In this document: piece after piece, positions 9,311 through 59,007 of the stretch
Layout: each line of letters starts with the position of its first letter
Numbering within the stretch: position 1 is the first letter of the stretch
From: Escherichia coli
GTDB lineage: Bacteria > Pseudomonadota > Gammaproteobacteria > Enterobacterales > Enterobacteriaceae
Strand: one strand, 5' to 3'
Assembly: GCF_017348835.2 (NCBI RefSeq)
Contig: NZ_CP071375.1
Length of the DNA stretch: 64,000 nucleotides
Notes under the pieces: model-generated
What the model was told of the DNA's origin: nothing
The model's database searches: none
What the model saw: only the letters and a program-made list of their open reading frames with translations
Translations under genes and position numbers: made by a program

Positions 9311-9416
9311 GCCGGATGCGGCGTGAACGCCTTATCCAGCCTACAAATTTGTGCAAATTCAATAAATTGCAGGAAATACGTAGGCCTGATAAGACGCGTC
9401 AAGCGTCGCATCAGGC
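9311..9416. repeat. REP/BIME palindromic units between convergent phr and dtpD
   Basis: gccggatgcggcgtgaacgccttatccagcctac (9311-9344) and gtaggcctgataagacgcgtcaagcgtcgcatcaggc (9381-9416), typical enterobacterial REP sequences. Confidence 0.85.
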
Positions 9417-26764: not shown

Positions 26765-26883
26765 GTAGGCCTGATAAGACGCGCAAGCGTCGCATCAGGC
26801 AACCAGTGCCGGATGCGGCGTGAACGCCTTATCCGGCCTACAAGTCATTACCCGTAGGCCTGATAAGCGCAGCGCATCAGGCG
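26765..26883. repeat. Cluster of three REP palindromic units (BIME) between sdhB and sucA
   Basis: gtaggcctgataagacgcgcaagcgtcgcatcaggc / gccggatgcggcgtgaacgccttatccggcctac / gtaggcctgataagcgcagcgcatcaggc. Confidence 0.85.
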
Positions 26884-31111: not shown

Positions 31112-31287
31112 TGCACTGTAGACCGGATAAGACATTATCGCCTTCTCCGGCAATTGAAGCCTGATGCGACGCTTAACGCGTCTTATCAGGCCTACGGGAA
31201 GCACCGATGTAGGTCGGATAAGGCGCTCGCGCCGCATCCGACAAGCGATGCCAGATGCGACGCTTACACGTCTTATCAGGCCTACGG
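31112..31287. repeat. REP/BIME cluster between sucB and sucC
   Basis: Several copies of gcctgatgcgacgc...gtcttatcaggcctac and gtaggtcggataaggcgctcgcgccgcatccgac type palindromes. Confidence 0.85.
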
Positions 31288-55452: not shown

Positions 55453-55998
<546 letters not shown>

Positions 55999-56007
55999 GA
56001 GAATTGC

Positions 56008-56799
56008 ATGAGCAGTAACTTCAGACATCAACTATTGAGTCTGTCGTTACTGGTTGGTATAGCGGCCCCCTGGGCCGCTTTTGCTCAGGCACCAATCAGT
56101 AGTGTCGGCTCAGGCTCGGTCGAAGACCGCGTCACTCAACTTGAGCGTATTTCTAATGCTCACAGCCAGCTTTTAACCCAACTCCAGCAACAACTCTCTG
56201 ATAATCAATCCGATATTGATTCCCTGCGTGGTCAGATTCAGGAAAATCAGTATCAACTGAATCAGGTCGTGGAGCGGCAAAAGCAGATCCTGTTGCAGAT
56301 CGACAGCCTCAGCAACGGTGGTGCAGCGGCGCAATCAACCAGCGGTGATCAAAGCGGTGCGGCGGCATCAACGACGCCGACAGCTGATGCTGGTACTGCG
56401 AATGCTGGCGCGCCGGTGAAAAGCGGTGATGCAAACACGGATTACAATGCAGCTATTGCGCTGGTGCAGGATAAATCCCGCCAGGATGACGCAATGGTGG
56501 CATTTCAGAATTTCATCAAAAATTACCCTGATTCAACTTACCTGCCAAACGCCAATTATTGGCTGGGTCAGTTAAACTACAACAAGGGTAAAAAAGATGA
56601 TGCGGCGTACTATTTTGCTTCGGTAGTGAAAAACTATCCGAAGTCACCAAAGGCTGCAGATGCGATGTTTAAAGTCGGCGTCATCATGCAGGACAAAGGT
56701 GACACCGCAAAAGCGAAAGCCGTATACCACCAGGTTATCAGTAAATACCCTGGTACTGATGGCGCTAAACAGGCACAAAAACGTCTGAACGCGATGTAA
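56008..56799 (+). CDS. cpoB: Cell division coordinator CpoB (YbgF)
   Basis: 263-aa ORF MSSNFRHQLLSLSLLVGIAAPWAAFAQA... with coiled-coil and TPR-like C-terminal region. Confidence 0.9.
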   Translation: MSSNFRHQLLSLSLLVGIAAPWAAFAQAPISSVGSGSVEDRVTQLERISNAHSQLLTQLQQQLSDNQSDIDSLRGQIQENQYQLNQVVERQKQILLQIDSLSNGGAAAQSTSGDQSGAAASTTPTADAGTANAGAPVKSGDANTDYNAAIALVQDKSRQDDAMVAFQNFIKNYPDSTYLPNANYWLGQLNYNKGKKDDAAYYFASVVKNYPKSPKAADAMFKVGVIMQDKGDTAKAKAVYHQVISKYPGTDGAKQAQKRLNAM

Positions 56800-56963
56800 T
56801 GCATAACACACGACCAGAAGTCGCATTATTTCTGGTCGTGTCGTGCGAATCATAAGCAGTTGAGTGATCTACATCGAAATTTTTGTTGCGCTCAAGTCTG
56901 AAATCAGTAATATATGCCGCCGTTGCCACGGGATATCAAACAAACCGAAAGCAACGAAAAAGT

Positions 56964-57039
56964 GGGTCGTTAGCTCAGTTGGTAGAGCAGTTGACTTTTA
57001 ATCAATTGGTCGCAGGTTCGAATCCTGCACGACCCACCA
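56964..57039 (+). tRNA. lysT: tRNA-Lys (anticodon UUU)
   Basis: GGGTCGTTAGCTCAGTTGGTAGAGCAGTTGACTTTTAATCAATTGGTCGCAGGTTCGAATCCTGCACGACCCACCA, 76 nt. Confidence 0.95.
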
Positions 57040-57074
57040 CTAACCTAGTTAGTTGTAGTATCCAGCGTAGTATC

Positions 57075-57150
57075 GGGTGATTAGCTCAGCTGGGAGAGCA
57101 CCTCCCTTACAAGGAGGGGGTCGGCGGTTCGATCCCGTCATCACCCACCA
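57075..57150 (+). tRNA. valT: tRNA-Val (anticodon UAC)
   Basis: GGGTGATTAGCTCAGCTGGGAGAGCACCTCCCTTACAAGGAGGGGGTCGGCGGTTCGATCCCGTCATCACCCACCA, 76 nt. Confidence 0.95.
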
Positions 57151-57152
57151 CC

Positions 57153-57228
57153 GGGTCGTTAGCTCAGTTGGTAGAGCAGTTGACTTTTAATCAATTGGTC
57201 GCAGGTTCGAATCCTGCACGACCCACCA
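57153..57228 (+). tRNA. lysW: tRNA-Lys (anticodon UUU)
   Basis: Identical to the first tRNA-Lys; begins 2 nt after tRNA-Val. Confidence 0.95.
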
Positions 57229-57279
57229 TTAATTACGGTGGGTTCGGTGGAAGTAGTTTGTAGTATCCAACGCAGTATC

Positions 57280-57355
57280 GGGTGATTAGCTCAGTTGGTA
57301 GAGCAGTTGACTTTTAATCAATTGGTCGCAGGTTCGAATCCTGCACGACCCACCA
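57280..57355 (+). tRNA. Chimeric tRNA: valine-type 5' acceptor strand (GGGTGAT) fused to a tRNA-Lys(UUU) body; possibly a pseudo-tRNA
   Basis: GGGTGATTAGCTCAGTTGGTAGAGCAGTTGACTTTTAATCAATTGGTCGCAGGTTCGAATCCTGCACGACCCACCA; differs from tRNA-Lys only at positions 5-6 (GA instead of CG), giving G5-G68 and A6-C67 mismatches; upstream spacer is valT-like. Confidence 0.7.
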
Positions 57356-57434
57356 ATTTTAACATCAAACTCAGATGTTAAGCGTGAAGGATAACGTTGC
57401 GCCAGCAACGGCCCGTAGGGCGAGCGAAGCGAGT

Positions 57435-57452
57435 CATCCTGCACGACCCACC
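57435..57452 (+). other. Orphan 3' fragment of a tRNA-Lys gene
   Basis: atcctgcacgacccacca, identical to the last 18 nt of tRNA-Lys, standing alone in the spacer between the chimeric tRNA and the next tRNA-Lys. Confidence 0.7.
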
Positions 57453-57501
57453 AATCTTAAAGATTGGCCCCGAGTAAAAATCTTTCAGGTAACACCCGTA
57501 T

Positions 57502-57577
57502 GGGTCGTTAGCTCAGTTGGTAGAGCAGTTGACTTTTAATCAATTGGTCGCAGGTTCGAATCCTGCACGACCCACCA
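57502..57577 (+). tRNA. tRNA-Lys (anticodon UUU)
   Basis: Same 76-nt sequence as lysT. Confidence 0.95.
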
Positions 57578-57610
57578 TCCTGAATGATTAAAGCAGCATA
57601 ATCCCGCAAG

Positions 57611-57686
57611 GGGTCGTTAGCTCAGTTGGTAGAGCAGTTGACTTTTAATCAATTGGTCGCAGGTTCGAATCCTGCACGACCCACCA
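57611..57686 (+). tRNA. tRNA-Lys (anticodon UUU)
   Basis: Same 76-nt sequence as lysT; last gene of the tRNA operon. Confidence 0.95.
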
Positions 57687-57693
57687 ATGTAAG

Positions 57694-57717
57694 AAAGCGC
57701 CCTAAAGGCGCTTTTTT
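57694..57717 (+). terminator. Rho-independent terminator of the tRNA operon
   Basis: aaagcgccctaaaggcgcttttttg: GC stem followed by T6. Confidence 0.85.
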
Positions 57718-57873
57718 GCTATTCAGGCATCCCTCAATTTAACTTTGTAAACCTGATGACATAGTCAGAGCTTACTGTGCAAGCAACTCTATGTCGGTGG
57801 AATTAGGCGTAAAATGACGCATCCTGCACATTAGGCGTAATTCGAGTGACTTTTCCCCACCATTCGACTATCT

Positions 57874-57891
57874 TGTTTAGCATATAAAACA
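57874..57891 (+). promoter_or_regulatory. Candidate NadR operator upstream of nadA
   Basis: TGTTTAGCATATAAAACA, near-palindrome of the TGTTTA...TAAACA type ~70 bp upstream of the nadA start. Confidence 0.5.
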
Positions 57892-57963
57892 AATTACACC
57901 GATAACAGCGAATATGACGCTTATGTCGGTTTTAACGTTAAGCCTGTAAAACGAGATGGTAAG

Positions 57964-59007
57964 ATGAGCGTGATGTTTGATCCAGACACGGCGATTTATC
58001 CTTTCCCCCCGAAGCCGACGCCGTTAAGCATTGATGAAAAAGCGTATTACCGCGAGAAGATAAAACGTCTGCTAAAAGAACGTAATGCGGTGATGGTTGC
58101 CCATTACTATACCGATCCCGAAATTCAACAACTGGCAGAAGAAACCGGTGGCTGTATTTCTGATTCTCTGGAAATGGCGCGTTTCGGTGCAAAGCATCCC
58201 GCTTCTACGTTGTTAGTCGCTGGGGTGAGATTTATGGGAGAAACCGCCAAAATTCTCAGTCCGGAAAAAACAATTCTGATGCCGACACTTCAGGCTGAAT
58301 GTTCACTGGATCTCGGCTGCCCTGTTGAAGAATTTAACGCATTTTGCGATGCCCATCCCGATCATACTGTCGTCGTCTACGCCAACACTTCTGCTGCGGT
58401 AAAAGCGCGGGCAGATTGGGTGGTAACTTCAAGCATTGCCGTCGAACTTATTGATCATCTGGATAGTTTGGGTGAAAAAATCATCTGGGCACCCGACAAA
58501 CATCTGGGGCGTTACGTGCAAAAAAAGACGGGCGCAGACATTTTATGCTGGCAGGGTGCCTGCATTGTGCATGATGAGTTTAAGACTCAGGCGTTAACCC
58601 GCTTGCAAGAAGAATATCCGGATGCTGCCATACTGGTGCATCCAGAATCACCACAAGCTATTGTCGATATGGCGGATGCGGTCGGTTCCACCAGTCAACT
58701 GATCGCTGCTGCAAAAGCATTGCCTCATCAGAGGCTTATTGTGGCAACCGATCGGGGTATTTTCTACAAAATGCAGCAGGCGGTGCCAGATAAAGAGTTA
58801 CTGGAAGCACCAACCGCAGGTGAGGGCGCAACCTGTCGCAGCTGCGCGCATTGTCCGTGGATGGCCATGAATGGCCTTCAGGCCATCGCAGAGGCATTAG
58901 AACAGGAAGGAAGCAATCACGAGGTTCATGTTGATGAAAGGCTGCGAGAGAGGGCGCTGGTGCCGCTCAATCGTATGCTGGATTTTGCGGCTACACTACG
59001 TGGATAA
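57964..59007 (+). CDS. nadA: Quinolinate synthase A
   Basis: 347-aa [58 protein letters not shown]... Confidence 0.95.

Follow-up and report, generated by a model that had tools for sequence, protein, structure and literature searches.

Within a cluster of tRNA genes in the Escherichia coli DNA analysed here (one stretch of 64,000 nucleotides, called the window below), the last 18 nucleotides of tRNA-Lys occur once more in a spacer, detached from any recognisable tRNA gene. We asked what this copy is: a leftover of recombination or integration, the remains of a decayed gene, or part of a larger element.

The fragment and its setting in the lysT operon

An exact-match search placed the 18-mer ATCCTGCACGACCCACCA at 57436-57453 on the + strand. 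An earlier sequence-only reading of the window had correctly recognised the fragment and had placed it one base too far to the left, at 57435-57452; position 57435 is the C of ...GAGTC. Six exact copies are present in the window. Five are the 3' ends of tRNA-Lys-type genes (56964-57039, 57153-57228, 57280-57355, 57502-57577 and 57611-57686, the third of these a chimera) and the sixth is the fragment, whereas the number of matches expected by chance was 0.00 even with two mismatches allowed, as judged from dinucleotide-preserving shuffles. As had been claimed, the fragment does duplicate the 3' end of tRNA-Lys (18/18 exact); it comprises the end of the T-loop, the 3' strand of the T-stem, the 3' strand of the acceptor stem, the discriminator and CCA.

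The copy lies in the 146-nt spacer 3' of the chimeric tRNA, the last 18 nt of which (57338-57355) are identical to it (18/18), so that the intervening DNA is bounded by a direct repeat. The exact match between the two copies extends to 20 bases (…CCAAT), after which four of the next five bases also match. No tRNA was found at the fragment by ARAGORN or by the Rfam tRNA model, and the region 57356-57453 likewise gave no Rfam tRNA match at E <= 1 and none by ARAGORN. The gene order reported by ARAGORN was Lys, Val, Lys, a Lys-type gene with a valine-type 5' end (57280-57355), Lys and Lys. The main features of the operon are as follows.

56964..57686, + strand: lysT tRNA operon, between cpoB and nadA; six tRNA genes, compared with seven in K-12 and PE164
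57280..57355, + strand: host tRNA, a chimera of valZ bases 1-15 and lysY bases 16-76; its last 18 nt (57338-57355) are the upstream repeat copy
57356..57453, + strand: whole RtT-family unit (98 nt), from the base after the upstream tRNA's CCA to the fragment's CCA (Rfam RF00391, K-12 identity, fold)
57436..57453, + strand: the fragment, an exact copy of tRNA-Lys A59 to A76, at the 3' end of the RtT-type unit
57454..57501, + strand: 48-nt spacer from the fragment to the next tRNA-Lys; it directly follows the tRNA in strains in which the site is empty
57696..57717, + strand: operon terminator, a hairpin and T-run after the last tRNA-Lys (read from the sequence and compared with K-12)

A simple promoter and terminator scan gave nothing useful and missed the operon terminator at 57696..57717. 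Just upstream of the operon, the Rfam CpoB/ybgF thermometer element was matched at 55899-56037 (+) with 142 bits, overlapping the start of cpoB. Elsewhere in the window, Rfam naRNA4 was above threshold at 26768-26838 (-) and 31212-31282 (+) and ES036 at 9345-9387 (+); these are REP-type repeat RNAs and are unrelated to the fragment.

The 98-nt RtT-family unit and its fold

The fragment had been described as an orphan standing alone in the spacer. It is very probably instead the 3' end of a spacer element of the RtT family (RF00391), a 98-nt unit with a conserved fold. An Rfam match to RtT spans 57287-57453 and ends exactly at the fragment's CCA, with 54.4 bits against a gathering score of 45; the same score was obtained in a 1.2-kb search and in a whole-window search with all Rfam families. 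As the upstream tRNA was used for model positions 1-60 in this alignment, with a 44-nt insertion, the score derives partly from tRNA sequence, and the homology therefore rests more safely on an alignment of the core. Sub-threshold Rfam matches to YrlA and plastid UTR families were rejected, as they were caused by the tRNA genes themselves.

In alignment A1, the window unit (57356-57453) was compared with five units of K-12 and two of the tyrT operon, the repeats of which are the founding members of RtT. All share a common core, AACGTTGC…GCAACGGCCCGNAGGGCGAG…GAGTNATCC, and in all of them the core is followed by the tail of the preceding tRNA, TGCACGACCCACCA in the Lys units and TTCCCCCACCACCA in the Tyr units. 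The 38 columns that are invariant across Lys and Tyr units fall mostly in AACG..GC..ACG.CCCG.AGGG.GA and ..ATCC. The unit also has the position of an RtT element, directly 3' of the tRNA at 57280-57355, on the same strand and inside the lysT operon, and RefSeq annotates an 'RtT sRNA' in the lysT operon of several other strains. The 80 nt before the fragment showed no tRNA similarity and no credible ORF, the ORF listing containing only spurious frames that run through tRNA genes. Covariance-model score, position, 3'-end copy, the core shared with the tyrT units and conserved structure all place the unit in the family.

Folding of the 98-nt unit gave -32.7 kcal/mol (z = -3.55 relative to shuffles). 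The predicted elements, in order along the unit, are listed below.

57359..57381, + strand: first hairpin, at the unit's 5' end just behind the tRNA, UUAACAUC / GAUGUUAA (centroid fold)
57383..57392, + strand: 5' strand of the closing helix P1, CGUGAAGGAU (folds, RNAalifold consensus, covariation count)
57395..57410, + strand: conserved RtT core hairpin CGUUGC-GCCA-GCAACG (alignment A1, fold, RNAalifold)
57411..57421, + strand: conserved RtT core hairpin GCCC-GUA-GGGC (alignment A1, fold, RNAalifold), also included in the pattern of the cross-species scan described below
57436..57445, + strand: 3' strand of P1, AUCCUGCACG, the paired part of the fragment (fold, covariation, RNAalifold)
57446..57453, + strand: unpaired tRNA-like tail ACCCACCA (fold)

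Pairing is predicted between the 5' strand of P1 and nucleotides 1-10 of the fragment, apart from one A·G mismatch. RNAalifold, applied to 25 short Lys and Arg units, independently recovered the closing helix and the two core hairpins. The 10 bp of the closing helix were then scored in 46 distinct units, with the upstream strand anchored on conserved landmarks and not on complementarity. Pairing reached 80.7%, compared with 71.7 ± 1.1 in column shuffles that ignore relatedness among the units (0 of 500 reached the observed value), and was at most 51% when one strand was slid against the other; changes on both sides were seen in seven of the ten pairs. In the Arg units of Pseudescherichia and Hafnia, an altered tRNA tail is matched by an altered upstream strand, a compensation within one host group. 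G·U pairs are tolerated in the helix, which points to pairing at the RNA level of this strand. As the shuffles take no account of relatedness, these results are good support, rather than proof, for covariation of the closing helix with the tRNA-derived tail.

Variation among E. coli strains and the neighbouring chimera

In K-12 MG1655 the lysT operon comprises seven tRNA genes, and five RtT matches in it exceed the threshold, each ending in ATCCTGCACGACCCACCA, with one unit behind each tRNA-Lys gene. The suggestion that the fragment may occur in reference strains too was therefore correct, MG1655 having the same fragment in the same spacer and four more in the operon. The orthologous site is the lysY-lysZ spacer (NC_000913.3 781223-781368). 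Its unit, which also scored 54.4 bits and is followed by the same downstream allele, ATCTTAAAG, differs from the window unit at one base only, the one next to the CCA of the tRNA, where the window has A and K-12 has G. The two copies differ in their surroundings: the K-12 unit has intact lysY as its host and four sister units, whereas the window unit has a valZ/lysY chimera as its host and no sister units. The element is already known and the finding is an ordinary one, the window copy being the orthologue of that in K-12.

Written with spacer lengths, the window layout is K-35-V-2-K-51-K*-[unit]-48-K-33-K, in which the fragment's site alone is filled and four sites are empty. Three of the empty sites lie between tRNA genes.

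57040..57074, + strand: RtT site, empty here; in K-12 a 100-nt unit separates lysT from this 35-nt spacer
57229..57279, + strand: RtT site, empty here; in K-12 a 98-nt unit separates lysW from this 51-nt spacer
57578..57610, + strand: RtT site, empty here; in K-12 a 99-nt unit separates lysZ from this 33-nt spacer

After its last tRNA-Lys, K-12 has a 156-nt long-form unit that includes a second copy of the terminator and is absent in the window. From first to last tRNA base the operon measures 723 nt here, compared with approximately 1255 nt in K-12 when counted to the end of its last unit. Relative to K-12, the window strain has lost four units by precise deletion.

Twenty loci were fetched from E. 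coli strains, of which 18, from complete genomes, were parsed, while PE164 and F2_81 were compared separately. In the 18 complete genomes each of the five sites was either filled or precisely empty, an empty site consisting of the tRNA followed at once by the usual post-fragment spacer. The number of units ranged from 0 (strains 536 and AVS0971) to 5 (K-12) and that of tRNA genes from 5 to 7. In strain GPEC859, lysQ is followed by a tandem pair of long-form units, both of which carry a terminator copy of their own (L017 3403-3714). Strain 14EC047 has a hybrid unit (L013 1579-1708) and one tRNA-Lys fewer, as expected from unequal recombination between units.

The lysY site was next scored in 5426 complete E. 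coli genomes by means of 33-mers that cover its junctions, designed so that any 28-base word within them reaches into the diagnostic sequence on either side. These were used in place of a whole-locus megablast, which joined the repeated tRNA pieces unpredictably and gave uninformative coverage. The site was filled in at least 3919 of the 5426 genomes (1000 + 765 + 1422 + 732 genomes per allele) and precisely empty in at least 1234 (9 + 189 + 1036), with about 5% unclassified. In 2154 of the genomes with a filled site (1422 + 732), the copy differs from the tRNA tail by one base in the unpaired part, the P1 part being unchanged; the match between copy and tail is thus not always maintained. Among the fetched loci, the substituted fragments at the lysY site were ACACACCA (L002, L006, L009 and L011) and AGCCACCA (L008 and L015). 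A survey of the operon across strains, proposed in the sequence-only reading, accordingly confirmed structural variation between strains, both in the fetched loci and in the junction counts. That reading had set against itself the case of an invariant feature of the standard spacer; the fragment is indeed standard in the reference spacer, but the locus is structurally variable among strains.

The chimeric tRNA immediately upstream was examined through the closest relatives of the window strain. Over window positions 30000-52000 (22 kb), the sequence is 100.0% identical to the pig isolates PE164 (China) and F2_81 (Australia), the next best genomes reaching approximately 98.8%; genes for methylaspartate mutase and of the AtuA family lie in this region. 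Over 56000-58250, comparison of the window with PE164 showed a single 79-bp gap and not one substitution, and F2_81 shows one substitution. The gap corresponds to the segment between the 9-mer TTAGCTCAG in valZ and the same 9-mer in lysY, and its removal yields the chimera, which has two acceptor-stem mismatches, at pairs 5-68 and 6-67. In PE164 and F2_81, valZ and lysY are intact and the same fragment is present; Z142-7 and K-12 likewise have the fragment without the chimera. As relatives keep the fragment with both genes intact, the chimera is unrelated to the fragment's origin. The proposal that fragment and chimera together point to past recombination therefore fails, the chimera being a separate 79-bp deletion. 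Its junction occurred in none of the 5426 complete E. coli genomes, where the sole match was a valine gene with a SNP, and was not found in the metagenome contigs scanned. The chimera is therefore a private event, perhaps a very recent deletion, or else an assembly error.

Units behind other tRNA genes, origin and turnover

Other species were scanned with the core pattern, one genome per species, which returned at least 120 loci, about half of them chance matches in GC-rich genomes without a nearby tRNA. Among the loci listed (L021-L139, for example L027, L033, L073, L109 and L117), many from Enterobacterales and a few from other Gammaproteobacteria had the core 50-125 nt 3' of tRNA-Lys(UUU), Tyr(GUA), Pro(CGG/UGG), Arg(ACG/CCG) or Gln(UUG), a host range that is a sample and not a census. 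At least 60 units (59 distinct) end in an exact copy of the 3' end of the upstream tRNA, 16-19 nt long overall and 18-19 nt in all but one. In the units examined, the host tRNAs all have the T-loop TTCGAAT and the copy always begins at A58 or A59. A literature search did not find a published statement of this general rule of a 3'-end copy. Units also stand at some positions of the orthologous cpoB-nadA cluster in Citrobacter, Enterobacter, Pluralibacter, Phytobacter and Pseudescherichia. They are accordingly older than these genera, and most of the empty sites in E. coli are probably losses.

Two further observations concern arrangement and form. In Arg(ACG) clusters, up to four RtT units stand in a row. 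In long-form units, such as that downstream of lysQ in K-12 (L001 1354-1509), the tyrT units (L003) and others, the arms of an inner hairpin copy the T-stem of the host tRNA: AACCTTC…AAGGTTCGA in Tyr, AACCTGC…GCAGGTTCGA in Lys and AACCTCC…GAGGTTCGA in Pro units. The sequence of such a unit resembles a T-arm with the core placed inside its loop.

The window unit was also set beside the tyrT-tyrV system (rtT/rttR, with 178-bp repeats). Both stand behind a tRNA gene on the same strand, occur as repeats, and have the core hairpins, an 18-19-nt copy of the host tRNA 3' end with CCA, and a closing helix formed with an upstream strand. Unlike the tyrT units (approximately 175 nt), the window unit is of the short form (98 nt), lacks their inner T-arm-like hairpin and GAUGAG segment, has no tpr-like ORF and follows tRNA-Lys instead of tRNA-Tyr.

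Other origins of the fragment were weighed against membership in the RtT family. Homologous recombination between near-identical tRNA genes could have left the fragment as debris, through an event of the kind that made the chimera; this would suit a locus that does rearrange between repeats (5 to 7 tRNA genes, one hybrid unit) and a chimera that lies immediately upstream of the fragment's unit. We nevertheless regard it as extremely unlikely: PE164 (no substitutions) and F2_81 (one) carry the fragment with valZ and lysY intact and differ in structure by the 79-bp deletion only, K-12 has the same fragment, and the sequence before it is RtT core, which is not tRNA-derived and is homologous to the units behind Tyr, Arg, Pro and Gln tRNAs. 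Next to no credence can be given to a decayed tRNA-Lys pseudogene of which only the last 18 nt are recognisable. Identity with the 3' end of tRNA-Lys agrees with such descent, as do the long-form units with their T-arm-like hairpins resembling the host tRNA, but neither ARAGORN nor the Rfam tRNA model (E <= 1) gave a tRNA signal, the presence of the core behind Tyr, Arg, Pro and Gln tRNAs is incompatible with descent from tRNA-Lys, and decay would not have spared an exact 3' end together with its compensating 5' strand. A scar of site-specific integration had been suggested as well, and a small insertion element could have left a similar one; here an insertion into the T-loop would have restored the gene and displaced its original 3' end, leaving the 80 nt as a remnant. 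In its geometry the duplicate agrees with such a scar: for every host tRNA it extends from the T-loop (A58 or A59) to CCA, as at attachment sites of the T-loop type. In addition, filled and empty alleles differ by exactly one unit and one repeat copy, the T-loop TTCGAAT is common to all host tRNAs, and the same core stands behind five tRNA species. Only this geometry fits, however. The 80-nt insert has no credible ORF, and no integrase or mobile genes lie between cpoB and nadA, which are themselves core genes. The RtT core is shared by different genera, is present at orthologous operons and is not lineage-specific. A covarying RNA helix with the duplicate is not expected of a decaying scar, five units in K-12 would require five integrations with an identical remnant, and slippage between repeats of 18-20 bp explains precise loss equally well. 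We consider such a scar very unlikely.

The likeness to integrative-element attachment sites (T-loop sublocation) extends to a T-loop-to-3'-end repeat flanking an insert behind an intact tRNA gene and to precisely filled and empty alleles, as at the lysT-operon sites; unlike those elements, the insert here is 80 nt, noncoding and a conserved structured RNA of many genera, with up to five per operon. Given the fixed T-loop boundary and the variety of host tRNAs, a further reading, though unlikely, is that RtT units are, or descend from, small non-autonomous modules that home to TTCGAAT T-loops and copy the last 18-19 nt of the host. Not exclusive of this, the closing helix with its free ACCA-type tail might mimic an uncharged acceptor/T-arm minihelix. 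If modules home, the filled and empty alleles of E. coli would include true insertions. If the units are minihelix mimics, they would be readable by 3' exonucleases, the CCA-adding enzyme or RelA, which would offer a mechanism for the reported effect of rtT on the stringent response.

We return to the fragment as the end of an ordinary RtT unit. The K-12 lysT operon is expressed as one transcript of approximately 1100 nt, from which the tRNAs are separated by RNase P; this cleavage leaves Lys pre-tRNAs with 3' trailers of up to 150 nt, which are removed by RNase II and PNPase and then RNase T, and RNase E is able to cut the long spacers when RNase P is missing (PMC4176162). The long spacers of that study are RtT units. 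Northern analysis with spacer probes in the K-12 lysT operon detected only precursors in RNase mutants and no stable spacer RNA of approximately 98 nt (PMC4176162). In PMC4986893, RtT RNAs are described as being released from tyrT and other tRNA operons. Release as a stable RNA, and a proposed modulation of the stringent response to amino-acid starvation, are reported for the tyrT product only, on the evidence of Bösl and Kersten 1991 (cited in PMC4986893).

A fate for the unit can be proposed along these lines. It is co-transcribed with the seven-gene operon and, after RNase P cleavage at the following tRNA, would belong to the 3' trailer of the tRNA-Lys in front of it. At the RNA level, nucleotides 1-10 of the copy are predicted to pair with a complementary stretch near the start of the core, forming the closing helix that extends the pairing of the T-stem, while the last 8 nt, ACCCACCA, stay free and resemble a tRNA acceptor end. 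A helix ending in CCA could act as a second tRNA-like stopping point for 3' exonucleases, and the helix may also prevent the additional tRNA tail from pairing wrongly with tRNAs nearby. A functional spacer of another tRNA transcript is the 3' external transcribed spacer of leuZ, which serves as an sRNA sponge. The RtT unit is likewise a by-product of tRNA operon processing and could have a role of its own; in sequence it is unrelated to the leuZ spacer.

At the DNA level, the tRNA tail and its copy form direct repeats of 18-20 bp, 80 bp apart, which could lead to precise loss of a unit, and sometimes to its gain or doubling, by slippage or unequal recombination. Loss by replication slippage between such direct repeats is well established in E. 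coli generally, and we infer that it may also be the loss mechanism for the units of the lysT operon. Turnover of this kind would result in E. coli strains with 0 to 5 units and in a window strain that keeps only one. As strains without a unit in the operon (e.g. 536) are viable, the function of each copy is dispensable or redundant, and we infer that the presence or absence of a single copy is close to neutral.

About the window strain the fragment says nothing special: it is a regular component of a known repeat family and matches the K-12 copy exactly. The lysT operon itself is a hot spot of small structural variation (0 to 5 units, 5 to 7 tRNA genes), which can confuse assembly and typing. 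More widely, 'orphan' tRNA tails 3' of Lys, Tyr, Arg, Pro and Gln tRNA genes in enterobacteria should not be taken for integration scars or recombination debris. With a closing helix that depends on the tRNA tail and covaries with it, the RtT units present a small puzzle of tRNA operon biology.
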